A stretch of 64,000 nt of DNA from assembly GCA_030682385.1 (NCBI GenBank), contig JAUXOG010000067.1, positions 8,790-72,789 on the forward strand, given 5' to 3'. This stretch comes from Bacteroidota bacterium (lineage in GTDB: Bacteria > Bacteroidota > Ignavibacteria > UBA10030 > BY39). Shown piece by piece: positions 2,484-35,952 of the stretch (its first letter is position 1; every line of letters starts with the position of its first letter). Below the pieces are notes generated by a model, which was not told where the DNA came from, ran no database searches, and saw only the letters and a program-made list of their open reading frames with translations. A program made the translations under genes and the position numbers.

Positions 2484-3818
2484 TTAATATTCTAGAAATA
2501 CACCATTTTTTATAACACGATATACATGATTTTCGCCGAAGTGGTAAGGAAGAAATTTATAATTCGGAATATCCAAAATAACTACATCGCCCCGTTTGCC
2601 TATATCTATACTGCCAATTTCATTCGAGAGATTTAAAGCCGCCGCCGCATTAATTGTGGATGCAGTTAAAACTTCCTCCGGACTCATTTTCATGTGAGTG
2701 CAGGCGATAGTCATCATCAGGGGCATCGAGTACGACATACAGGAGCCGGGATTGAAATCGGTGGCAATTGCAACAACCACTCCATTCTCAATCAGTTTCC
2801 GTGCGGGGGCGTATTGATGATTTAGAAAGAAAGAAACTCCGGGCAAAAGTACTGCTGCAACATTTCCTTGTTTTAAGGAGTTGATACCATCATCTGTAAT
2901 ATGTTCCAGGTGGTCAGCAGAAACAGCGCCGATTCTTCCTGCTAATTCTGCACCGCCGAATGAAGTTAGTTCTTCGGCATGAATTTTTGGAAGCAGCCCG
3001 TGTTGCTTTCCGAGTGTTAAAATTTTTTCAGATGTTTCAACATCGAAGTAGCCTTTTTCACAGAACACATCGCAAAAGTCGGCAAGTTTGCGTTGCCCTA
3101 TGTAAGGTATCATTTGATCGCATATCAAACTAACATACCCGTCCGGATTATTTTTGAATTCGGTCGGGAAGGCGTGGGCACCAATGAAAGTAGATACGAT
3201 CGATATAATTTCTTCCTGCCGCAGTTCGCGGATAACATCTAACATTTTGATTTCTGAATCGAAATCCAACCCATAACCGCTTTTAATTTCTACCGTGGTT
3301 GTTCCCTGTTTCAGCATTGAAGTTAAATAACGGCGGGCTTTTTTCTTTAATTCTTTTTTTGATGCTTCGCGTGTTATACGGACGGAACTTAAAATGCCGC
3401 CCCCTTTTTCAGCAATCTCCTGATAAGTTTCACCGGCTGAGCGCATACCGAATTCGTCCTCGCGGCTGCCGCCAAAAACAAGATGAGTGTGTGAATCGAC
3501 AAAACCGGGCATCACGACTTTATCAGAACAATCGTATTCTATAAAATTGTTAGATAAGTTTTGGGGTAAATCCTCCATCTTTCCGAAGTGCGAAATAAGT
3601 CCGTTTTCGATTACCACGACGGCGTTCTCGACGATGCCCAAATTTCGCATTTCATCACCAACACGAAAGCGTCTATCTTTAGGAGATGTTAATTCCGACG
3701 AGAGAGTAACAAGCTGTTTTATGTTCGTTAATTTGAGATTCACATTGCAAAGATAAGAAAAGGGGGCTGATTTTGCAAAGTTTTTTTTATCGGTTGCAAG
3801 AAAAACCAACGCTGGCAC
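2484..3818 (-). CDS. hutI: Imidazolonepropionase
   Basis: PGFVDSHTHLVFGGSRE metal-binding motif with an amidohydrolase fold. The N-terminus is uncertain: the track start may be TTG/GTG, and the true start is probably downstream of 3818. Confidence 0.85.
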   Translation of the reverse strand: MPALVFLATDKKNFAKSAPFSYLCNVNLKLTNIKQLVTLSSELTSPKDRRFRVGDEMRNLGIVENAVVVIENGLISHFGKMEDLPQNLSNNFIEYDCSDKVVMPGFVDSHTHLVFGGSREDEFGMRSAGETYQEIAEKGGGILSSVRITREASKKELKKKARRYLTSMLKQGTTTVEIKSGYGLDFDSEIKMLDVIRELRQEEIISIVSTFIGAHAFPTEFKNNPDGYVSLICDQMIPYIGQRKLADFCDVFCEKGYFDVETSEKILTLGKQHGLLPKIHAEELTSFGGAELAGRIGAVSADHLEHITDDGINSLKQGNVAAVLLPGVSFFLNHQYAPARKLIENGVVVAIATDFNPGSCMSYSMPLMMTIACTHMKMSPEEVLTASTINAAAALNLSNEIGSIDIGKRGDVVILDIPNYKFLPYHFGENHVYRVIKNGVFLEY

Positions 3819-4849: not shown

Positions 4850-6217
4850 TTACTCCACTTTTATTTGATACTGCTGTATTTTGGTATAAAGTGTTTTTAA
4901 ACTAATGCCAAGTATTTTAGCGGCTTCGGCTTTATTGTTTTGCAAGCTTTTCAATACACCTTCGATGTGTGTTTTCTCTACATCTTTTATTGGAACATGG
5001 CTGCCAATCAATCCGCTTTGTTCAAGGTTTTGCAGAAGGTTGGATGACCGCAATGGAAGCGATAAATCGTAAGGCTGTATCAAATCATCTCTCGAGAGTA
5101 TTGCTGCACGTTCGATCATATTTTCAAGTTCGCGTACATTTCCGGGCCAATCGTATTTTATAAGTACCTCCATCGCGGCTGGACTTAGCTGTTTACGGAC
5201 TTTCATTTTTAGTTTCTTCGTTAGGAAAAATTCTACTAAACGGGGTATATCTTCTTTTCTTTCCTTCAAAGTTGGCATCTCAATCGTGATGACATTCAGT
5301 CGGTAGAGCAAATCTTCGCGGAATCTTCCTTGTTTTACTTCTTCAACTAAATCTTTGTTTGTTGCGGAAATAATTCGCACATCCGATTTCAGTACCGCAT
5401 TACCACCAACACGCCGGAACTCGCCGCTCTGTATAAACCTCAATAATTTTGGCTGTATTAGCGGGCTTATATCACCGATTTCATCCAAAAACAAAGTCCC
5501 GTTGCCGGCGAGCTCAACCAAACCCTGCTTCATCGAACGGGCATCGGTGAAAGCGCCACGTTCGTGGCCAAACAATTCACTTTCGATTAGCGTGTCTGGA
5601 ATTGAGGCACAATTGAGGGCAACAAACGGCTTGTCGGCACGATCGCTGTTTTTATAAATAAAACTTGCTACTAACTCTTTACCCGTTCCACTAGCACCTT
5701 GAATTAATATGGTCGATTCTGTCGGTGCAATTTTCAAAGAAATATCTAAAACCTTTTTAAAATTCGGACTGCTGCCTATGATTTCAGTAGAACCGGCAAT
5801 ACGTAATAATTCAGCTTTTATTAATTGGTTCTCGCGAAGAAGTGTTTGCTTTTCAATTATTTTTTTGATCGTTCGGTGCAACTCGGTTGCTGAATATGGT
5901 TTAGTAAGAAATTCGTAAGCGCCCGACTTCATGCAATCGATAGCTATTCTTATATCGCCAACGCCGGTCAGCATAACCACATCGATATTCTGTAAATTTT
6001 CTTTAATAAATTTGAGGACATCGACACCATTGACCTTCGGCATTTTAATATCTAAAAGTGCAATGTCGAATGCTTTCGTTTGAAGCATGTTTATTGCCTG
6101 GACACCATCGGATACTAAATCAATATCGTATCCGGCAGTTTCCAAAAAATATTTCAGCATAAAACGGAATTCTTCTTCATCGTCCGCGATTAATATTCTT
6201 GTACTCTGTTTTACCAT
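4850..6217 (-). CDS. Sigma-54-dependent response regulator (NtrC/AtoC family)
   Basis: REC domain (ILIADDEEEF...D) plus AAA+ sigma-54 activator domain (GASGTGKELVA, ESELFGHERGAFTDA) plus C-terminal HTH (AAKILGISLKTLYTKI). Confidence 0.9.
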   Translation of the reverse strand: MVKQSTRILIADDEEEFRFMLKYFLETAGYDIDLVSDGVQAINMLQTKAFDIALLDIKMPKVNGVDVLKFIKENLQNIDVVMLTGVGDIRIAIDCMKSGAYEFLTKPYSATELHRTIKKIIEKQTLLRENQLIKAELLRIAGSTEIIGSSPNFKKVLDISLKIAPTESTILIQGASGTGKELVASFIYKNSDRADKPFVALNCASIPDTLIESELFGHERGAFTDARSMKQGLVELAGNGTLFLDEIGDISPLIQPKLLRFIQSGEFRRVGGNAVLKSDVRIISATNKDLVEEVKQGRFREDLLYRLNVITIEMPTLKERKEDIPRLVEFFLTKKLKMKVRKQLSPAAMEVLIKYDWPGNVRELENMIERAAILSRDDLIQPYDLSLPLRSSNLLQNLEQSGLIGSHVPIKDVEKTHIEGVLKSLQNNKAEAAKILGISLKTLYTKIQQYQIKVE

Positions 6218-7494: not shown

Positions 7495-9054
7495 ATGAAA
7501 AAACTACAACTTGACGGAAACAACCTAACAATCACCAATGTCGCGGCTGCTGTTAATAATTTTAACAATATAAAAATAGATTTTACCAAAGATGCGGCGA
7601 GGAATATTAAGGCATCACGTACGATGGTTGACAATTGGGTGCGAAACGGAGATATTATTTACGGAGTTACTACAGGCTTTGGCGAATTCAGCAACGTTAC
7701 AATTAGCACCGAAGACATCGAGCAACTTCAGGAAAATTTAATTATGAGCCACTCAGCCGGTGTGGGCGAACCGCTGCCGCTCGAAGTTGTACGTGCGATG
7801 ATTATTTTGCGACTGAATGCACTTGCAAAAGGTTACTCAGGAATTCGTTATGAAACTTTGGATTTTGTTAGAAAAGTTTTCAATGCCGGCATCACTCCTG
7901 TAATTCCGTCGAAAGGATCTGTCGGATCCAGCGGCGACCTCGTTCAACTTTCGCATTTAGTTTTGACTATGATGGGAAAAGGAAAAGTTTTGTATGAAGA
8001 TATTTTAATGGACTCATCGATTGCATTAAAAAAGATTGGACTTGAACCGCTGCGTCTAAGTGCGAAGGAAGGTTTAGCTCTCATCAACGGAACACAACTG
8101 ATGACTGGATACGGAGCGTTAATAATGTTCGCAGCCGCTCAACTTTGTAAGATTGCAGATATTGCTGCAGCGATGAGCTTTGAAGCATTGAAAGGAACCG
8201 ATACAGCATTCGACGAGCGGATACATAATCTGAGACCGCACGAGGGACAAAAAATATCGGCAGCAAATTTACGCAAACTTATTGCAGGCAGCGAGATTCG
8301 TGAATCGCACCGTAAAGACGATCCTCGCGTTCAAGATGCTTACTCACTACGATGTATCCCGCAGGTTCACGGCGCTTCGCGCGATGCAATTAATTACGCA
8401 TACAATGTAATTGAAACTGAGATAAACTCAGTTACCGACAACCCGATAATTTTTCCAAAAGAAAAAATACATTTAGAAGGGGGCAACTTCCACGGTCAAC
8501 CGCTTGCTCTTGCACTCGACTTTACCGGAATTGCACTTGCCGAGTTTGCCAATATTTCGGAACGCCGAATCGAGAGAATGTTAAACGGAAATTTAAGCGG
8601 ACTTCCACGCTTTTTAACAACACGCGGCGGACTAAACTCGGGCTTGATGATAGCTCAATATACTGCAGCATCGCTCGTCTCTGAAAACAAAGTTCTTGCT
8701 CACCCGGCTTCGGTCGATTCGATTCCCACTTCAGCAAGTCAGGAAGACCACAACAGTATGGGGTCGATTAGCGCCGCAAAAGCATGGCAGATTCTGAAAA
8801 ATGTGCAAGCGGTTTTGGCTATCGAACTTATGGTCGCTGCACAAGCTGTCGATTTTGCCTCAATAAATGTAACGACTGCGAAAGTTATGAAGCTTGGTAA
8901 AGGAAGCGCTGCGGCTTACAAATTAATTCGAAAACATATTTCGCATCTAACCGGTGATAGAGTTTTACACGACGATATTTCGAAATCGTTGAACTTAATT
9001 ACAACGGGTGCTGTTATCAGTGAAACTGAAAAAGCAATTGGAAGAATTGAGTAA
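7495..9054 (+). CDS. hutH: Histidine ammonia-lyase (MIO-dependent aromatic amino acid lyase family)
   Basis: GSVGSSGDLVQLSH is a MIO-forming motif, an SSG variant of the usual ASG. About 520 aa. Start placed at MKKLQLDG (7495), not the track start 7438. Confidence 0.85.
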   Translation: MKKLQLDGNNLTITNVAAAVNNFNNIKIDFTKDAARNIKASRTMVDNWVRNGDIIYGVTTGFGEFSNVTISTEDIEQLQENLIMSHSAGVGEPLPLEVVRAMIILRLNALAKGYSGIRYETLDFVRKVFNAGITPVIPSKGSVGSSGDLVQLSHLVLTMMGKGKVLYEDILMDSSIALKKIGLEPLRLSAKEGLALINGTQLMTGYGALIMFAAAQLCKIADIAAAMSFEALKGTDTAFDERIHNLRPHEGQKISAANLRKLIAGSEIRESHRKDDPRVQDAYSLRCIPQVHGASRDAINYAYNVIETEINSVTDNPIIFPKEKIHLEGGNFHGQPLALALDFTGIALAEFANISERRIERMLNGNLSGLPRFLTTRGGLNSGLMIAQYTAASLVSENKVLAHPASVDSIPTSASQEDHNSMGSISAAKAWQILKNVQAVLAIELMVAAQAVDFASINVTTAKVMKLGKGSAAAYKLIRKHISHLTGDRVLHDDISKSLNLITTGAVISETEKAIGRIE

Positions 9055-9203: not shown

Positions 9204-10295
9204 ATGAAACTTACAGAAAAAATAATCCGTGCGATGCCTAAAGTTGTTTTGCACGACCACCTCGACGGCGGCTTACGTCCGCAAACAGTTATCGATTTAG
9301 CCAAAGACCACGGTTACACAAAGCTGCCGACAAAAGATGCGGGTGAACTTGCCGAATGGTTTCACCGCGGTGCCAAACGGGGAAGTTTGCCTCTTTACCT
9401 CGAAGGCTTCGAACACACAACAGGCGTTATGCAAACCGAAGAAGCTCTCGAACGGGTAGCTTACGAAATGATGGAAGATATGAAGAACGATGGTGTTGTG
9501 TATGTTGAAACTCGCTTCTCCCCCATCTTCCATACAAACAAAGGATTGCATTGGGAAGAAATTGTAAATGCTGTTTTAAAAGGTTTAGAAAGAGGTAAAA
9601 AAGATTTCGATGTTGACTACGGTGTAATCATCGCAGCGATGCGAAATATGAAACTCTCGGAAGAGATGGCAGAGTTAGCTGTGGATTTCAGAGAAAAAGG
9701 AGTTGTAGGTTTTGACCTTGCCGGCGAAGAAGGTGGCTTTCCTCCTAAAAAACATGTAGAGGCTTTCCAATATATTCAACGTGAGAACTTTCACATTACA
9801 ATTCACGCGGGCGAAGCTTTCGGAAAAGAATCTATCTGGCAGGCAATCCAGTGGTGCGGCGCCGATAGAATTGGGCATGCTACACGGCTCATCGAAGATT
9901 TCGCAATTGACGAACAAGACCCGACACACGTAATTAAAATGGGATATTTAGCCCAGTATGTTTTAGACAAACGGATTCCACTCGAAATTTGTTTAACGAG
10001 CAATGTCGATACAGGTGCTGTAAAAAGTTTGGAAGAGCATCCATTCGGACTTTACTACCGCTACAAATTCAGAGTTACTTTGAATACCGACGACAAACTG
10101 ATGAGCAATACTACAATGACTAAGGAATACAAAATTGCAAACGAAGTGTTCGGTTTAGAGTTTGATGATTTGGAAAAACTATCCATCAACGCAATGAAGA
10201 GTGCTTTCGTACCTTACAAGCAACGGATCGAACTCATCTACAAAAAAATTAAGCCGGGCTTTACGAAGTTGAGAAGCAGCATGAAGAAAAAGTAA
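9204..10295 (+). CDS. add: Adenosine deaminase
   Basis: VVLHDHLDGG N-terminal zinc-binding motif. The C-terminal SNTDD-like region is TLNTDD. 363 aa. Confidence 0.85.
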   Translation: MKLTEKIIRAMPKVVLHDHLDGGLRPQTVIDLAKDHGYTKLPTKDAGELAEWFHRGAKRGSLPLYLEGFEHTTGVMQTEEALERVAYEMMEDMKNDGVVYVETRFSPIFHTNKGLHWEEIVNAVLKGLERGKKDFDVDYGVIIAAMRNMKLSEEMAELAVDFREKGVVGFDLAGEEGGFPPKKHVEAFQYIQRENFHITIHAGEAFGKESIWQAIQWCGADRIGHATRLIEDFAIDEQDPTHVIKMGYLAQYVLDKRIPLEICLTSNVDTGAVKSLEEHPFGLYYRYKFRVTLNTDDKLMSNTTMTKEYKIANEVFGLEFDDLEKLSINAMKSAFVPYKQRIELIYKKIKPGFTKLRSSMKKK

Positions 10296-28481: not shown

Positions 28482-29342
28482 TTAAATTCTTATTGATAAA
28501 GTGACTTTGCTCGACCGTGTAGTATAGTCCGAGTAAAACTCAAACTTAATTTTATTATTTTCAACGTAAACTTTTTCCCCCTCACTGCTGATTGCATCGG
28601 AAATGTTAAATATGTAAATTGCGCCAGCAGCAATAAAGCATCCTAAGCTTATATCTTCATATAAATTGGTTTGGTCATTATAATAATCTCGGAGTGCCTG
28701 TGTCCTTGAGTTCTCAGCGTCTGTCTTTGCTGTTAATTTCAAATTGTGAAATATAAAAGCCGCAGAAACCAGTATTACTTCAGTTCCTGCGATCAGAAAT
28801 CCTTTTGTGTTTTGTCCTTTATATAATTGACCCCAACCCGGTAATAATGTTGAACGCCAAACAGGTGAGAAAGAACTTGGTGGTGATTCAAACCCCTTTG
28901 TTTTGGGAATCTTCACTAAGCTCCAAAAAGTGTATGACGTACCCTCAGTTTCTTGGTATCTTTCTTCTTCAATCAGACCCCGTATGGTTATAGACTTTCC
29001 ATCTATTGCCAATTCTCTCGCACTCTTTCTCACTAATTCGATAGATTGGTTGTTATTCAAATTTCGTTGTATGAGATACGAAGTATCACGCTGTGATGCA
29101 GTAACTACAATTTCTCTGCTCTGTTGGATTCGATAGATTGCATCTACCAGCGCTTTTTCATGTGCATCTGAATAAGAAGAATCGCTCGTGCCGATACCGA
29201 TAAAATAATCGTTGAGGTATCCTTTTGGTGTTTCGTCAATCCAGCGTGGGTGATCTGATTGGTTGCTTTGCGCGTTAGCCCGTAGGAGAAAAAATGCCAG
29301 CATCATTATCAATGCTGGCATTCGCTTGATTACTTTCAACAT
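28482..29342 (-). CDS. Hypothetical secreted/membrane protein, LPP20-like N-domain plus a C-terminal transmembrane segment
   Basis: Signal peptide MLKVIKRMPALIMMLAFFLLRANA. LLPGWGQLYKGQN is followed by a hydrophobic helix. Confidence 0.4.
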   Translation of the reverse strand: MLKVIKRMPALIMMLAFFLLRANAQSNQSDHPRWIDETPKGYLNDYFIGIGTSDSSYSDAHEKALVDAIYRIQQSREIVVTASQRDTSYLIQRNLNNNQSIELVRKSARELAIDGKSITIRGLIEEERYQETEGTSYTFWSLVKIPKTKGFESPPSSFSPVWRSTLLPGWGQLYKGQNTKGFLIAGTEVILVSAAFIFHNLKLTAKTDAENSRTQALRDYYNDQTNLYEDISLGCFIAAGAIYIFNISDAISSEGEKVYVENNKIKFEFYSDYTTRSSKVTLSIRI

Positions 29343-29350
29343 TATGATCC

Positions 29351-29953
29351 TTACTTAGATTGGTCTTTGAGTTCTTTCAAAAGATCATCAGCAACTTTTT
29401 CGGCTTTCTGGTTATTTTCCTTTTGGGCTTGCTTCTTCATTTCATCATATGCGCCATAAAGCGATGCCTGATAATCTTTCTTTGAGATTTTTAGACGAGT
29501 GTAGCAATTGTAAGAATATGTCAGACCGCTTGGCTCGTTCTTCTCAACTTTTTCCCAATACGATTCCGGGCTGGTAACGCCCATGATTCGTTTGGTATCG
29601 GATACCCAAGCAATTGCAAACGAGCTATAACGACCGACATCACCATCGCTCATGTTGGCGCCTTGCAACGCTTGAGTAGTTTGTGTTTTAACTTCGTTCC
29701 CCATTGTGTTAACAAGCTTTTGCATACCGTCTGCATTGGCTTGATTCATGCCGAAGGACATATCGTATGCTTTGGTCATAACACCTGTAACGTAGAGATC
29801 ACCGTCTGTGAACTCGCTCGTTTTCATGAGCCAATCGGGCTTACTTGAAGTGCTTGCATTGATTGTTTTTTCTTCACCGATTTGCATTTCTTTGGAGCCG
29901 GAGCAGCCGAAGATTGAAAAGGCAAGTACTAAAATTAAAGCTATGAATTTCAT
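29351..29953 (-). CDS. Hypothetical lipoprotein (LPP20-like)
   Basis: Lipobox LAFSIFGCSG. DGDLYVTGVMTKAY resembles the LPP20 family. Confidence 0.45.
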   Translation of the reverse strand: MKFIALILVLAFSIFGCSGSKEMQIGEEKTINASTSSKPDWLMKTSEFTDGDLYVTGVMTKAYDMSFGMNQANADGMQKLVNTMGNEVKTQTTQALQGANMSDGDVGRYSSFAIAWVSDTKRIMGVTSPESYWEKVEKNEPSGLTYSYNCYTRLKISKKDYQASLYGAYDEMKKQAQKENNQKAEKVADDLLKELKDQSK

Positions 29954-30028
29954 AAGAGTCTCCTTATTTTAATGATTGATGTTGGATGAACTTCAGTTCG
30001 TCATATATGTAAAATGAAGTTTGGATTG

Positions 30029-30592
30029 CTATCGTTGTTTTGATGTTATTGATAAAAGCTGTACTGTATCGAAAAATAACTTTCGGGATTTTTTCAATTC
30101 TTCCTTGACGGTGGCTAAAGAGAATTTACCGCCATGAACAATGCTGTTTCTACGGTCTCTTACAATTTCCAGTTCTTTCAATAATCTCGGTGATTCGGAA
30201 CTAACCTTCTTTCCAGTCGCATCTTTGAAACCTTTAGTAAGTCTTTCAGATATTTTCCAATGAATTTTAAGGTAGCATTCTTTGGACATTCCAATTTTCT
30301 TTGTGTCCAAGTTATCTCTTAGCCAGGCAGAGACAAAAAGTTCAAGTGCTGAAAAATACGAGACCAATGCTATCCACTTCAACCGACTTTTCTGAATGCC
30401 TTGTGCTTCTTCAGCCCTTGCGCCTAGTTCATCCGCGATTGCCGCATAGTTGCGTGAAATAGCTCCCAGAAATTTGTACCTACACTGGAAGCCGCATTTG
30501 GGACACTTCATCAATGTTGCAAAGCTTCTCCTATTTTTAGTCTGGGGCATCATTTTAGTTTTTCTGCAACTTGGACAAGCAGCACCGTTCAT
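30029..30592 (-). CDS. Zinc-ribbon protein with a C-terminal R-x4-H (HEPN-like) motif. Candidate toxin or defence effector
   Basis: CPSCRK-x19-CPKCGFQC forms a CxxC...CxxC ribbon. RRNSIVHGG near the C-terminus fits the HEPN Rx4-6H signature. The ATG at 30592 is preferred over the TTG track start at 30613. Last gene of a tight three-gene operon. Confidence 0.4.
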   Translation of the reverse strand: MNGAACPSCRKTKMMPQTKNRRSFATLMKCPKCGFQCRYKFLGAISRNYAAIADELGARAEEAQGIQKSRLKWIALVSYFSALELFVSAWLRDNLDTKKIGMSKECYLKIHWKISERLTKGFKDATGKKVSSESPRLLKELEIVRDRRNSIVHGGKFSLATVKEELKKSRKLFFDTVQLLSITSKQR

Positions 30593-30614
30593 ATTCTTAC
30601 CTAACGAAATCAAT

Positions 30615-30875
30615 CTATTCGCCTTTTATTCTTCTTCTAATTTTCCGATGCGGATCGGGGTTGTTCGGCCAAAGGCTGGGTCCCTTGCGAGGTTTCACAG
30701 ACTTCTCTACAGGAGGTTCTGCAATTTTCTTCCAAATCCCATTTCCTAAATTCTCGATGCAATTATTACTTTCTAAGTATATCTTTACCTTCAGGAAGTT
30801 TCGATGTTCCTTTTCATTAAATTTCTCTCCAATTTCCATTTTACGAAAGGTATTTTCTATCCAGGGATTAAACAT
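30615..30875 (-). CDS. Hypothetical 86-aa protein with a basic C-terminus (middle gene of the three-gene operon)
   Basis: ATG start confirmed. 1-nt gap to the downstream gene. No family recognised. Confidence 0.4.
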   Translation of the reverse strand: MFNPWIENTFRKMEIGEKFNEKEHRNFLKVKIYLESNNCIENLGNGIWKKIAEPPVEKSVKPRKGPSLWPNNPDPHRKIRRRIKGE

Positions 30876-30887
30876 AAAGCCTTCCCC

Positions 30888-31187
30888 TTAATTTTCATTG
30901 GGAAGTTGACTTAAAAAAACTTTTACTTCCTCAGTGGTATAAAATTTCTTTTTGGGTAACCATTGTTCACCATCCTTTTTCTGATAAGAATAGAAAGGTG
31001 AAGAAGATTTATCTTGAGCAACCTTCAAGATTCTCTTTTCCTCTGATATAATGATTGCAACAGCAGTAACTTTGTCCTGAGTAGTGTGTGTCCATGGGTC
31101 ATTGCTAAGATGTTTCAGCGGATTCTCAATTTCTGTCAATTTGAAGTTGAGTTCAGATTCATCTGGAGTTATATTTTGTGGGTACAT
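30888..31187 (-). CDS. Hypothetical 99-aa protein (first gene of the three-gene operon)
   Basis: ATG start confirmed. 12-nt gap to the next gene. No family recognised. Confidence 0.4.
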   Translation of the reverse strand: MYPQNITPDESELNFKLTEIENPLKHLSNDPWTHTTQDKVTAVAIIISEEKRILKVAQDKSSSPFYSYQKKDGEQWLPKKKFYTTEEVKVFLSQLPNEN

Positions 31188-31669
31188 ATGTCGTTGTGCC
31201 TTAGTATTTATTCAAATGAAACTCACTTACTTCTCTAATCTTATTTGAAATTCTAACTTCATCAATAATACCAACAATTCCATAAAAAAAAGTTCCATTA
31301 TTATAAGAACCTATCGTAGGTGGGTAACCAGAGCCAGTTGAGACAAAACTTCCACTAGCAAGATCAACTTCCCGTTGGAGAACACCGTCAATAAAAAGTC
31401 GCTCTTTACGTGTTACAAAGTCGACCTGTGCTACCACATGATACCAGACACGTGAATGTAGTGTCGTTGAATGGATTATGGGCCACCCCCCCGTTGTATG
31501 TGCACCAAAGAAGATAGCCGAGTCGGGAGATGTAGCAAGCTGTACTTCGCCATCATTTCCGTTATAGTAGATATCCTTGCCCTGGTGTCCAATTTGTAAC
31601 TTTGACCCACGCTTCAATTGTCTGCTGTTGCGGTACAGACCCAAAAAGCGAAGTGCCGAGCGTAACTGG

Positions 31670-33175
31670 GGTATTATAATCCCAGATTGTTCAATAGGGC
31701 ATAATTTCTAATGACCGCCATTAGGAAAAAGCATAGCTAAGTTGTTATTTTATAGTAAGTTGTGCTATATTAGTCGAGCATAAAAACGATAATTTAACGA
31801 GTAAGAAAAGCATACATCAAAATGGAACTAAAAATCGAGTTTACCGACAAAGAGATCACTCCTTGGGGCGGCATGGTTTTAATGAAACAGTTGATAGAGA
31901 AGACAAAGATAAATGAAATATTAGAACGTCTTCCACTACCTGCTCAAAACTCAAATCGAGGTTATAACCCGATACAGTTGATAAACAATTTTTGGGTAAG
32001 CATATGGAGCGGAGCCAGTCGTTTTGAGCATTTAGAAGTGACAAGAATGGACAAAGTAATACAGAAAATATTTCGTTGGAAACAAATGGCTGGGCATAAA
32101 TCTTTCCAAAGATATTTTAAGAAATTCGGACAAGCAGATAACCAGCGAGTATTTACCGAACTATTCAACTGGTTTTTCAAACAGATAAAATTCGATAACT
32201 ACACATTAGATTTAGACTCAACGATAATGACAAGATATGGGAATCAACAAGGGGCGAAGAAAGGTTATAATCCGAAGAAGCCGGGGCGAAATAGTCATCA
32301 TCCTTTGATAGCATTTGTAGCAGATGTACGAATGACGGTAAACTTTTGGTTAAGAAGCGGGAACTCATATACAACAAATAATTTTTACAATTTTCTTGAA
32401 AACACCTTTGAGCGATTAGAAGGAAAGACTATAGGACTCTTAAGAGCAGACAGTGGGTTTTATGATAAAAAGATATTAGAATACTTGGAAAATCGAACAA
32501 AACCGGTCAATTACATAATAGCGGCAAAATTTTACAGACCTTTAAAACTAGCCATAGCAAGAGAGAAAACCTATTTAAGATTAGATGATGGGATAGAGAT
32601 AAGTGATACTATGTACCAAAGTCCTGAATGGGAAAAACCAAGACGTATGATAATAGTAAGACAAGAAATAAACCTACGTCCAAAAGCAACGGGAAAGCAG
32701 TTGCGGTTATTTGGAGAAGAAGAAGTATATAAAAATTACCGTTATAGTTGTTTAATAACCAACCTTAGCTTGTCGGCAAAGATGATATGGGATGCATACC
32801 GAAACAGAGCAGATGCAGAGAATCGAATAAAGGAATTGAAAGAAGATTTTGGAGCCGATAGTTTTAATGTAGAAAATTTCTTTGCGACTGAGGCAGCACT
32901 AAACTTTGTAGTGATGGGTTATAATTTGATGAGTTTATTTAGACAAGCAATACTACAAACAAAAACACAGCAACAATTAAAAACACTACGGTATAGAGTA
33001 TTTGCTATTGGCGCATACATTACAAAAAATGGTAATGATAGGATATTAAAATTATCATTAGCAATGAAACGGCGAAGCTGGTTTGAAGGACTTTGGTCGA
33101 GTACAAATCTTTTCAGCTGGCCGTTTGTTGCATTAAAAGAAAATTTCTAATGACAAATCTGGGATAATTAAAACT
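31670..33175 (+). mobile_element. Insertion sequence, IS4/IS1380-family-like, ~1.5 kb
   Basis: One transposase ORF. Imperfect terminal inverted repeats TTATAATCCCAGATT (left) and AATCTGGGATAATTAA (right). Boundaries are approximate and the target-site duplication is unresolved (possibly AACT). Confidence 0.7.
31822..33150 (+). CDS. DDE transposase (IS4/IS1380 family)
   Basis: 442 aa. NSHHPLIAFVADVRMTVNFWLRSGNSYTTNN and LLRADSGFYDKKILEYLE are characteristic DDE_Tnp_1-like blocks. Confidence 0.8.
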   Translation: MELKIEFTDKEITPWGGMVLMKQLIEKTKINEILERLPLPAQNSNRGYNPIQLINNFWVSIWSGASRFEHLEVTRMDKVIQKIFRWKQMAGHKSFQRYFKKFGQADNQRVFTELFNWFFKQIKFDNYTLDLDSTIMTRYGNQQGAKKGYNPKKPGRNSHHPLIAFVADVRMTVNFWLRSGNSYTTNNFYNFLENTFERLEGKTIGLLRADSGFYDKKILEYLENRTKPVNYIIAAKFYRPLKLAIAREKTYLRLDDGIEISDTMYQSPEWEKPRRMIIVRQEINLRPKATGKQLRLFGEEEVYKNYRYSCLITNLSLSAKMIWDAYRNRADAENRIKELKEDFGADSFNVENFFATEAALNFVVMGYNLMSLFRQAILQTKTQQQLKTLRYRVFAIGAYITKNGNDRILKLSLAMKRRSWFEGLWSSTNLFSWPFVALKENF

Positions 33176-35109
33176 TCTGGCATTTCCCCATTTCCCAACA
33201 ACTATTGCTGCATTGTTTGATATTCCGGTGTGTCCATTACCACTTGCATCTGCGACTGTGTTACCACTTGTTTCATCAAAGTGATAAAGTGCAATTGTAT
33301 TAGCATCGGTGGTATAAGGTCCACTATTAGAAGAAAGTGTTGTCACGTTTCTTTCGTTCGAATCACTCGTTAAGTTGCTATTATTCACTACCCTCACTTT
33401 GAAATAGTAAGTTGTATTTTGAGTCAATCCGCTCACCGTTGTGCTCGTAGTTGATTTGGATGCAATTGTCTGATATAACGTTCCTGAACTCGGAGTGAAA
33501 CTGCTTGTGGTTGATTTATGAATCTCATACTGTTTAAAATCAGCATCATTATTCTGGCTCCAACTCAAATTTACAGAAGATGTAGTAATGTTGGTTGGAA
33601 CGTACAGCGTTACAGACGTTGGGTTGCTTGCCGCCGGAACAGTCATAGAAACATTAACTGAATCGTTTCCGCCATTTGACGTAACGCTGAGCTTTCCCGA
33701 ATAATTTCCAGCGCCTAAACCAGAGCGATTTACATAAACATTTACAGTCATTTGATTGCTTCCGTTAGAAGGATTCACTGTCAGCCAATTTTGGTTTGAA
33801 GAAACTTGCCAGTTCAATGTACCAGACCCGCCGTTGGAAATATTGAAGTTTAAATTTGTTAATGTGCTGCCAAAATCCAATTGCTTTGTAGATAATGCTA
33901 ATGTTGGAACAGTTGGAGTCCTCATTTGAATTGCGACAGATTGACTTCCTCCATTTGAGGTAATATTTACTTGACCTGCATAACTATTTCCAGCCGTCAA
34001 TCCCGCCCTACTTACTTGAACTGTTACTACGTCTGTTTCGCTTCTTGTCGAATCATTTGTCGGAACGACGGAAATCCACGCTTGCGGAGATGCTGCTGAC
34101 CAGTTGAGCGTTCCCGTTCCCGTGTTAGAGATATTGAACTGAAGATCAATTTTGTCTAACCCAAAATCAAGTAATAAAGGCGAGGCGGTAAGTTGAGGTA
34201 AATTAGGATTCTGTACAGTCATAGTTATTGCAATATCTTTATTGCCGCCGTTGGAAGTGACAGTCAGTGTATTGTTGTAATTTCCATAGCTTAGTCCAGT
34301 GCGATTTACAGTTAAAGTTAGTGTGCTGGTGCCTGTCGTTAGCGATCCAGAAGCCGGATTCACTGTCAACCAATCAGCACTTTTGATGATAGACCAATTT
34401 ATAGTCCCAATTTGTGTTGTGTTCGTGAGTATGCAAGTTAAAGTTGTGATCCCAACGCCAAAATCAAGATTAGAACTTGAGACAGATAATTGCGGCAATA
34501 ATAATTCTAATTGAATGTCCGCAGACGCAGTGTAGCCTTCCTTCACTGCTACATTGATTGAGTTTTGTTTATAACCATCCTTAGTTGCAATTACACTATA
34601 TTGCCCCGATGAGACATTTGAAATCACGTAATTACCAAAACCATCCGTTGTTACTACAGAAGTCGTTGGATTAGTTGTAATAAGTGCACCTGATAAACCG
34701 TTATTAGTTATTTTTTCAGCAACCCTACCACTTATTTTTGTTTCAACTACTGGCACTTCCGTAGGTTTCTGTTTGCATGTGTTGAATAAAAATATTACTG
34801 TGATGATTAAACTTATTATTAAACATTTCATATGCTACCCTACAAATGACCCAATAATAAATAGCTTCCGTTATATGTGAAGATCTGCAGGTAGAAAACT
34901 ACCTACGTTATCTATGTGAAGTCTGCCAATGATTAAGTTTCTGAAATAATATCTGAATGTCAAGTAAAAAGGAGTAAACGAAGTAATATGCAAACACAGA
35001 GAAATTAGTAAATGTTTTAAAACAAAAATTAGGAATTTTCACCAAATTTCCTTATTAATTTATTACTTTTTTAACAAACTTCAGCACAACGAATATTCAT
35101 CAGTAGATT

Positions 35110-35952
35110 ATGGCAAATATAAAATTATTTGAAACAAAAAAAATTCGTTCTCAATGGGATGAACAAGAGCAGAAATGGTATTTTGCAATTGTTGATGTTG
35201 TTGCAGTGCTAACTGAGAGTGTTGATGCTCAGGCGTATTGGCGAAAGCTAAAAGAACGCCTTAAAAAGGAGGGAAATGAAACCGTGACAAACTGTCACGC
35301 TTTGAAAATGCAAGCAATGGACGGAAAAATGCGCCTCACCGATGTGGCAGATGTCCAGCAGATGCTTCGTCTAATCCAATCTATTCCTTCTCCAAATGCA
35401 GAACCTTTCAAACTCTGGTTAGCAAAAGTTGGGAATGAACGACTTGAGGAAATTGAGAATCCCGAGCTTGCACAAATGCGTATGCGTGAAATATATAAGG
35501 CAAAGGGTTACAGCGATGAATGGATCGAAAAGCGTGTCCGCGGCATTGCAGTAAGGGATGAGCTTACGAATGAATGGAAGAAGCGGGGTGTGAAAGAAGC
35601 AAAGGAATATGCAATCCTCACTGCCGAAATAAGCAAAGCCACATTTGGTTTAGTGCCAAGTGATTATAAAAAGCTAAAAGGATTAACGAAACCGCAGGAG
35701 AATTTGCGCGACCATATGAATGATCTTGAATTAATTTTTACCATGTTGGGCGAAGCAGCCACAACGGAAATAGCTCGAAATAAAGATGCGCAGGGTTTTC
35801 CTGAAAATGAGCAAGCCGCAGTCGAAGGTGGTACAGTGGCAGGAAATGCCAGAAAAGAATTGGAAAAGAAATCGGGCAGACAAGTAGTAACAAGTCAGAA
35901 TTATAAATTATTTTCAGAGAAAAAGGTACGACAACTAAGAAAGAAAAAGTAA
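35110..35952 (+). CDS. DinD/Bro-N-like (phage antirepressor-like, DNA-damage-inducible protein D family) protein
   Basis: KIRSQWDEQEQKWYFAIVDVVAVLTES ... AQAYWRKLKERL ... IQSIPSPNAEPFKLWLAKVG resembles the DinD/Bro-N N-terminal module. Identified from sequence memory only. Confidence 0.5.
   Translation: MANIKLFETKKIRSQWDEQEQKWYFAIVDVVAVLTESVDAQAYWRKLKERLKKEGNETVTNCHALKMQAMDGKMRLTDVADVQQMLRLIQSIPSPNAEPFKLWLAKVGNERLEEIENPELAQMRMREIYKAKGYSDEWIEKRVRGIAVRDELTNEWKKRGVKEAKEYAILTAEISKATFGLVPSDYKKLKGLTKPQENLRDHMNDLELIFTMLGEAATTEIARNKDAQGFPENEQAAVEGGTVAGNARKELEKKSGRQVVTSQNYKLFSEKKVRQLRKKK

Follow-up and report, generated by a model that had tools for sequence, protein, structure and literature searches.

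What is encoded by the cluster of three short genes that occupies positions 30029–31187, on the minus strand, of a 64,000-nucleotide stretch ('the window') of contig JAUXOG010000067.1, part of a metagenome-assembled genome (MAG) of an uncultured member of the Bacteroidota (assembly GCA_030682385.1)? An earlier, sequence-only reading of the window had taken the trio for a small toxin–antitoxin (TA) or abortive-infection module built of proteins from no nameable family, the last of which would combine a zinc ribbon with a HEPN-like motif. The listing of open reading frames (ORFs) bears out the three minus-strand ORFs, and all three look real. As we argue below from sequence comparison and analogy, the last gene may encode a zinc-ribbon plus HEPN RNase effector that works in the manner of E. 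coli RAZR, with the two small genes being co-expressed; we put the probability of this reading at about 50%.

RAZR, also called PD-T7-4, is a ring-activated zinc-finger RNase of E. coli that acts as a single-gene abortive infection system (PMC13017515; Vassallo et al., preprint 10.1101/2022.05.12.491691). Its Cys4 zinc ribbon, at the N-terminus, is joined by a linker to a divergent HEPN domain of the DUF4145 type with the catalytic residues R146 and H154; the protein is activated by phage ring proteins, and the zinc-finger domain, which is the most variable part of the protein, sets the specificity (PMC13017515). RAZR thus provides a precedent for the architecture of the last gene, which the sequence-only reading had, like the two small proteins, assigned to no family. 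For the small proteins (99 and 86 amino acids, aa) that earlier statement stands: neither has a significant match in Pfam, NCBIfam, PADLOC or PHROGs.

Zinc ribbon and putative HEPN domain of the last gene

The last protein belongs to a new and very small family. Our word-indexed search of a 5.8-billion-cluster database returned three sequences, namely the protein itself and its homologues on two further contigs, L001 (87% identity) and L002 (66%). Two more distant relatives emerged when 1.84 billion representatives were scanned with phmmer in filter-only mode: P0004 (422 aa), matched in its C-terminal part at E 4e-4, and P0005 (115 aa), matched at E 6e-4 (both are whole-library E values). Scans of species-representative genomes, metagenome contigs and viral contigs yielded no homologues, and neither did tblastn searches against phages and plasmids. 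By these searches the zinc-ribbon HEPN protein is represented by three sequences among some 15 billion proteins. In what follows, the three close homologues together with P0004 and P0005 make up the five family members, and residue numbers are those of the 187-aa form of the window protein.

The Cys4 ribbon noticed by the sequence-only reading is real and conserved, with C6, C9, C30 and C33 unchanged across all three close homologues, although its central spacing, earlier given as x19, is x20 in the translation. The ribbon has weak matches to the HVO_2753-type zinc pocket and to zinc-ribbon models, and sequence searches of the PDB returned only an HVO_2753-like zinc pocket (E 0.057), RAZR (9Y9C/9Y6U) not being recovered. 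The string RRNSIVHGG that had suggested a HEPN RNase is also present, at residues 147–155, where it provides R148-x4-H153. As an Rx4-6H string is expected by chance about 0.5 times in a protein of this size (our own estimate), the motif carries weight only through its conservation. The R-N-x3-H motif is identical in the three close homologues; all five family members share R148, H153, E84, W112 and R117, with either N or D following R148; and the motif persists in relatives that are only 27–28% identical. The HEPN superfamily has been defined by Rx4-6H with a polar residue (N, D or H) right after the arginine and by an upstream acidic residue, typically in the form Ex3[KR] (PMC3710099). The segment R148-N149-S-I-V-H153 shows both the Rx4-6H spacing and the polar residue; the invariant E84 is located in the first helix, but not in the Ex3[KR] arrangement.

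Several independent and individually weak tests agree in placing the all-helical C-terminal domain among HEPN domains. For two family members, the window protein and P0003, the best Pfam match is HEPN_RiboL-PSP (E 8e-4 and 1e-4), and this match spans the motif-bearing C-terminal half. The PADLOC model of RT-associated HEPN gives sub-threshold matches (E 0.006 and 0.015), and P0005 matches Pfam HEPN_MAE_28990 at E 0.16. Furthermore, homology can be followed transitively, from the window protein to the C-terminus of P0004 (E 4e-4, phmmer) and from residues 267–418 of P0004 to the PADLOC model of Csx1/Csm6 CARF+HEPN proteins (E 3e-6; CARF_HEPN model, E 9e-5). An NCBIfam search of P0004 and P0005 gave no match. 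HEPN domains are all-alpha bundles that carry the motif at the junction of helices 3 and 4; the domain-only AlphaFold2 model, of low to moderate confidence, predicts a bundle of four helices, in which helix 3 ends with the motif (predicted local distance difference test, pLDDT, 69; predicted template-modelling score, pTM, 0.63). While the comparison of predicted structures, which the sequence-only reading had proposed as a check, gave no specific fold match, we consider it likely, judging by the profile matches and the model, that the helical domain belongs to the HEPN superfamily.

For the comparison with RAZR we obtained RAZR-family sequences by searching viral contigs for the published PD-T7-4 primers. 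One of these contigs, L008, carries a gene for a 219-aa RAZR homologue that overlaps an integrase gene and in which the numbering of R146 and H154 agrees with the paper; used as a positive control, this homologue matched DUF4145 at E 3.4e-13 and PD-T7-4 at E 1.7e-99. Five further homologues were gathered, and the alignment contained seven RAZR-family sequences. Aligned against these seven by hhalign, the five-member family scored 28.6 (P 1.3e-3) over 151 collinear columns that cover both domains, as compared to a mean of 13.2 (sd 2.5, maximum 21.1) for 150 column shuffles and 17.4 for the reversed control. The HEPN parts alone scored 24.6, as compared to 11.1 ± 2.2 (maximum 19.3) for the null and 15.9 for the reversed control. 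C6, C9, C30 and C33 align with C16, C19, C49 and C52 of RAZR, and R145-x3-N149-x3-H153 pairs in register with R146-x3-N150-x3-H154.

The primer search also led to a side observation on RAZR itself. A slot beside the same integrase, bounded by both PD-T7-4 primers, is found in two prophage-type contigs, at 9271–10382 in L007 and at 3027–4112 in L008. It holds RAZR (219 aa) in L008, whereas the 202-aa HEPN-like ORF in L007 (motif EVRDAIAH) is unrelated and lacks a zinc ribbon. Judging by the two sequences, a hotspot of fixed position has exchanged its cargo.

The two small genes and the cohesion of the trio

Contig L001 (6.3 kb) is related to the window and has the same gene order: a LamG protein, followed by genes of 100, 85, 194, 200 and 287 aa. 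The trio is intact there at 61–90% nucleotide identity. Comparing nonsynonymous (pN) and synonymous (pS) divergence between the two contigs, we obtained a pN/pS ratio of 0.32 for the 99-aa gene (68% aa identity; pN 0.164, pS 0.506), 0.33 for the 86-aa gene (56% identity to its 85-aa counterpart; pN 0.285, pS 0.871) and 0.54 for the last gene (83% identity; pN 0.087, pS 0.162). With pN/pS at 0.32–0.54 and the ORFs intact in L001, all three ORFs are real genes under purifying selection. This includes the 86-aa gene, which the annotation of the source MAG skipped, as is evident from the adjacent NCBI locus tags Q8K98_06565 and Q8K98_06570 on either side of it; the ORF was called by the Logan gene caller on contig L019, which is identical to the window, and on L001, and its product is known only from Logan. 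In the search of 5.8 billion clusters the 99-aa protein recovered itself and its L001 copy and the 86-aa protein recovered only itself; the word-indexed search is limited for such short proteins, as it failed to recover the L001 copy of the latter, which is 56% identical. Searched by tblastn against phages, the two small proteins returned nothing.

The spacing of the genes depends on where the last one starts. The 12 nt between the 99- and 86-aa genes are as stated earlier. The last gene yields 194 aa when read from TTG at 30613 and 187 aa when read from ATG at 30592; the 1-nt gap claimed for it holds only for the TTG start, while the 187-aa product claimed alongside requires the ATG start and hence a gap of 22 nt, so that the sequence-only reading had merged two alternative starts. 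In L001 the corresponding ATG is changed to ACG, and the TTG abutting the stop codon of the 85-aa gene is the sole canonical start that keeps the first CxxC of the protein; the L002 homologue, in turn, starts at ATG. The 99- and 86-aa genes are probably co-transcribed with the putative RNase gene, to which translation of the 86-aa gene may be coupled. Predicted promoters and terminators were no more numerous than expected from shuffled sequence and carry no information on transcription units. Finally, just 13 nt separate the stop codon of the LamG fragment upstream (Table 1) from the start of the 99-aa gene, and the trio therefore belongs to a longer co-directional block.

As for the trio forming a unit of its own, it recurs only in L001, and L001 shares the whole block of LamG, 99-aa, 86-aa, HEPN, lipoprotein and 286-aa genes. 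The shared six-gene block points to shared ancestry, so this synteny does not amount to independent co-occurrence. In L002, the HEPN gene again lies 12 nt behind an ORF (L002 1–121), of which the last 39 residues, all that this short contig offers, were examined. A relation of this ORF to the 99- or 86-aa protein was rejected, as shuffled sequences equalled the observed score in 182–404 of 500 trials. The next gene downstream in L002 (922–2280) encodes a PEGA/CarboxypepD_reg surface protein, which recalls the window, where the trio likewise adjoins a surface-protein gene. The trio is thus not supported as a conserved module, contrary to what had been proposed, and its being a TA system is a possibility that we weigh below.

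Genomic setting and mosaic conservation

The features of the cluster and its neighbourhood are collected in Table 1. Directly upstream of the trio, an insertion sequence (IS) splits a surface-protein gene in two (31201–31675 and 33169–34831); the L001 equivalent of this gene is intact and lies directly upstream of the 100-aa gene. The IS, placed 1 kb away by the sequence-only reading, begins some 0.5 kb ahead of the 99-aa start codon, and by its insertion the trio may have been separated from a promoter further upstream. On the other side, the 200-aa lipoprotein had been labelled LPP20-like, a label we do not retain: the protein has a lipobox, but no LPP20 match in Pfam at E ≤ 1.

Table 1. Coordinates of the trio, of the elements within its last gene, of neighbouring genes and of the near-identical tracts (window positions; residues refer to the 187-aa form)
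Feature	Position	Strand	Description
99-aa ORF	30888..31187	-	First gene of the trio; acidic, isoelectric point (pI) 5.7; orphan; NCBI tag Q8K98_06570
86-aa ORF	30615..30875	-	Basic, pI 9.9; Lys/Arg-rich C-terminal tail; orphan; uncalled by PGAP
Zinc-ribbon + HEPN-like gene	30029..30613	-	Last gene of the trio; strongly basic, pI 10.1
Cys4 zinc ribbon	30482..30577	-	C6-x2-C9-x20-C30-x2-C33, plus invariant C37
Putative catalytic motif	30134..30160	-	R145-D-R-R148-N149-S-I-V-H153, from the translation
All-helical HEPN-like domain	30038..30397	-	Residues 66-185
LamG C-terminal fragment	31201..31644	-	Piece of a CarboxypepD_reg-BACON-fn3-LamG surface-protein gene; N-terminal part at 33113-34831
Insertion sequence	31676..33168	+	DDE_Tnp_1_4 transposase 31822-33150; 22-nt inverted repeats 31676-31697 and 33147-33168
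Lipoprotein gene, 200 aa	29351..29953	-	75 nt after the stop of the HEPN-like gene; lipobox; same order in L001
DUF5683-like gene, 286 aa	28482..29342	-	8 nt after the lipoprotein gene; same order in L001
Bro-N/DinD-like gene	35110..35952	+	Pfam Bro-N E 2.6e-10; phrog_15286 E 7.7e-103; PADLOC PDC-S13 E 5e-127
Near-identical tract A	30990..31140		L001 1030-1180; within the 99-aa gene, codons ~16-62; 90-95% identity, pS 0.17
Near-identical tract B	29830..30500		L001 1655-2330; HEPN domain, 75-nt spacer and first ~42 lipoprotein codons; 93-100% identity

The Bro-N assignment made earlier is upheld by Pfam, and the PADLOC match makes this gene, at a distance of 4 kb from the trio, a candidate defence gene (PDC-S13). 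In L001, a 357-aa SIR2-like gene is located 1.3 kb past the cluster (5021–6094, minus strand; PADLOC Aga_SIR2 E 1e-6, Pfam SIR2 E 6e-4). Nothing in the 64-kb window resembles the far flank of L001, which means that the two genomes differ on that side of the cluster. We conclude that the cluster is a small accessory patch set among housekeeping genes, and that it has defence-like neighbours without being a classical defence island.

Two further observations concern the surroundings of the cluster and of its relatives. At 29292–29323 on the minus strand, a terminator-like hairpin with a 14-bp stem and a T-run falls within the signal-peptide codons of the 286-aa ORF; the palindromy may be a coincidence, or else the 286-aa gene may in truth start further downstream. 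The gene for P0004, in which 280 N-terminal residues precede the C-terminal Csx1/Csm6-type HEPN domain, is located at 8001–9269 of contig L003 (it is also found in L004–L006), in an island that also contains a serine recombinase, several small ORFs that are orphans and a gene with a SocA_Panacea antitoxin domain.

Conservation between the window and L001 is mosaic. Against a background of 60–70% nucleotide identity and saturated pS (0.75–0.9), two tracts are near-identical (90–100% identity, pS 0.06–0.19; A and B in Table 1). Within the HEPN part of tract B, pS is 0.063 and pN 0.042, and the intergenic spacer is identical at 75 of 75 positions. The breakpoint of this tract coincides with the junction between zinc ribbon and HEPN domain: ribbon codons 1–50 lie outside it, with pS 0.49 and pN 0.21. 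Relative to L002, pS is 0.57–0.70 throughout (near saturation) and the ribbon is slightly more divergent than the HEPN part (pN 0.22 vs 0.16–0.17). An RNA-level cause of the near-identity was considered and rejected, both because folding z-scores range from -0.4 to +0.9 and because synonymous sites are unconstrained relative to L002; a search of the tracts against Rfam gave one match at E ≤ 1, the chance-level lncRNA RF02125 (E 0.65; 21.4 bits vs a gathering threshold of 48). The simplest reading of the sequences is that the tracts probably reflect recent recombination. The breakpoint at the domain junction, seen in a comparison of two alleles only, is suggestive of a parallel with the variable zinc-finger domain of RAZR.

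Proposed function, alternatives and known systems

On the reading that we favour, the last gene would encode a small, very basic protein in which an N-terminal Cys4 ribbon is joined to a divergent HEPN-type, metal-independent RNase domain, with R148 (and/or R145), N149 and H153 forming the active site. By analogy with HEPN enzymes in general and RAZR/PD-T7-4 in particular, we infer that the helical domains dimerise to create a composite active site and that the protein is kept inactive in normal cells. The zinc ribbon would, as in RAZR/PD-T7-4, serve as the module that binds a partner or a trigger; once activated, the enzyme would cut RNA and arrest growth, thus acting as an abortive-infection or conflict effector.

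Several observations weigh against this reading. As regards the fold, the HEPN_RiboL-PSP matches score 19.8 and 22.7 bits, under the curated cut-off of 28.4, and no HEPN model passes its cut-off; the confidence of the AlphaFold2 models is low to moderate (pLDDT 56 for the full-length protein and 69 for the domain alone); and Foldseek searches of the PDB and BFVD found no specific fold match but generic helical bundles only (E > 0.4), the matches otherwise including small zinc-ribbon proteins. As regards RAZR, the hhalign probability for the match to its family is only 13–18%, and both the Pfam DUF4145 model and the PADLOC PD-T7-4 model miss the window protein at E ≤ 1. As regards the setting, housekeeping genes flank the cluster (hemE and hemH with a protoporphyrinogen-oxidase-like gene to the left; fumarase and citrate synthase to the right, past Bro-N), and a defence island defined by composition was rejected, GC being 0.38–0.41 in and around the cluster without anomaly. 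The sub-threshold profile matches, the generic bundles and the estimated chance frequency of Rx4-6H strings would all suit a zinc-ribbon protein that is not HEPN at all, such as a regulator or scaffold whose four-helix bundle is of a generic kind. We hold this to be improbable, given that the motif is invariant down to 27–28% identity and has the typical polar residue after the arginine, that a transitive link leads to the HEPN domain of Csx1/Csm6 and that the in-register alignment to the catalytic residues of RAZR beats all shuffles as well as the reversed control. The housekeeping flanks and the unremarkable composition would, for their part, fit a role outside conflict, with the protein binding RNA or other nucleic acid, or processing RNA, as a factor of a cell-surface operon in which the small ORFs are passengers; so would the six co-directional genes with short gaps that are kept as a block in L001, and the surface-protein gene that adjoins the homologue in L002, too. 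Yet three sequences among billions of proteins are a poor fit to housekeeping, the remote relatives reside in mobile islands with Csx1/Csm6-type HEPN domains, and the upstream surface-protein gene has already been inactivated by the IS while the trio is intact, all of which makes this role more improbable still.

The remaining alternatives concern the small genes. In a tripartite TA-like unit, the zinc-ribbon HEPN protein would be the toxin, the 99-aa protein the likelier antitoxin and the 86-aa protein a regulator or an adaptor. The gaps of 12 nt and (from the TTG start) 1 nt are as such a unit would have them, and the L001 TTG, as the only start that keeps the ribbon, suggests translational coupling. 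The three orphans also share the same narrow distribution, their charges are complementary (pI 5.7, 9.9 and 10.1), the divergent stretch between the near-identical tracts takes in the C-terminus of the 99-aa protein, the whole 86-aa gene and the zinc ribbon, and the 12-nt spacing to another ORF in L002 is compatible with partner swapping. Tight spacing is, however, not specific to the trio, since the 13-nt gap behind the LamG fragment is equally tight; the trio is confined to two closely related genomes that share the six-gene block; the ORF end found upstream in L002 is related to neither of the small proteins; the latter match no antitoxin, defence, phage or NCBIfam model; and RAZR and HEC-08, the known zinc-ribbon/HEPN defence proteins, each function as a single-gene system (PMC13017515; 10.1101/2024.01.29.577857). 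On balance we regard a TA unit as unlikely. A bolder version, which we rate as improbable, takes the trio for an undescribed three-component conflict module in which the two small orphans restrain or target a RAZR-like RNase; the 99-aa C-terminus, the 86-aa protein and the ribbon would then constitute an exchangeable specificity cassette, which stays divergent while lineages exchange an almost unaltered HEPN core.

Were the RAZR-like RNase effector that we favour active, it would constitute a second lineage of zinc-ribbon plus HEPN proteins besides RAZR, sequence-unrelated or very distantly related to it and found in uncultured Bacteroidota, and would support the pairing of a zinc-ribbon sensor with a HEPN RNase as a recurrent design for infection-triggered RNases. 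At 187 aa it would also be a minimal example for asking which features of RAZR-type activation are general, and should the two orphan partners prove functional, they would bring in a level of regulation that is missing from RAZR. In practical terms the value is modest, as the family is tiny and the host uncultured.

How does the locus compare to known systems? HEPN-MNT systems and three-gene TA systems such as omega-epsilon-zeta are small operons that end in a toxin gene preceded by small genes. The operon studied here likewise ends in a putative toxin, and one of the upstream products is acidic; it differs in having no MNT nucleotidyltransferase and no recognisable antitoxin or regulator fold, and in that the partnership is not kept in L002. 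Csx1/Csm6 proteins are connected to the window protein through the remote relative P0004, which matches the HEPN part of the PADLOC model; here both the CARF domain and a CRISPR context are missing, and the window protein itself is unmatched by these models. The RiboL-PSP-HEPN or AbiD-AbiF clade (Anantharaman et al. 2013, PMC3710099; PF18735) provides the best Pfam match, in the C-terminal half with Rx4H, although the scores are under the cut-off and the locus has neither an L-PSP fusion nor a ParB neighbour. HEC-08 (Hma-embedded candidate) is a single-gene defence system that combines a HEPN domain with zinc fingers and in which the histidine of Rx4-6H is essential (10.1101/2024.01.29.577857). 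Here, too, one protein joins a HEPN RNase domain, in our case a putative one, with zinc-finger or zinc-ribbon-like modules, but HEC-08 has the reversed order, with an N-terminal DUF3644 HEPN domain followed by C-terminal zinc fingers, and no sequence relation was detected.

RAZR offers the closest architectural parallel. Beyond the aligned cysteines and catalytic residues, both proteins place a Cys4 ribbon at the N-terminus and a HEPN domain (here predicted) at the C-terminus, within 187–194 aa here and 219–220 aa in RAZR, and in both the zinc-binding part varies more: the ribbon is somewhat more divergent than the HEPN part here, and the zinc finger is the most variable region of RAZR. The differences are that the protein studied here is about 30 residues shorter, that it also has a canonical Rx4H (from R148) where RAZR has Rx7H, and that its gene, the last of the trio, stands in a co-directional run of three (or six) genes in a Bacteroidota MAG, with no adjoining integrase, while RAZR is a single-gene system that typically abuts an integrase or mobile element. 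As the DUF4145 and PD-T7-4 models are blind to it, the window protein is not a member of the RAZR family by sequence; the architecture appears to be the same, and homology would be very distant at most. The zinc-ribbon plus HEPN architecture is thus already known from RAZR, and what is new here is a very rare family that probably has it, together with two orphan partners.

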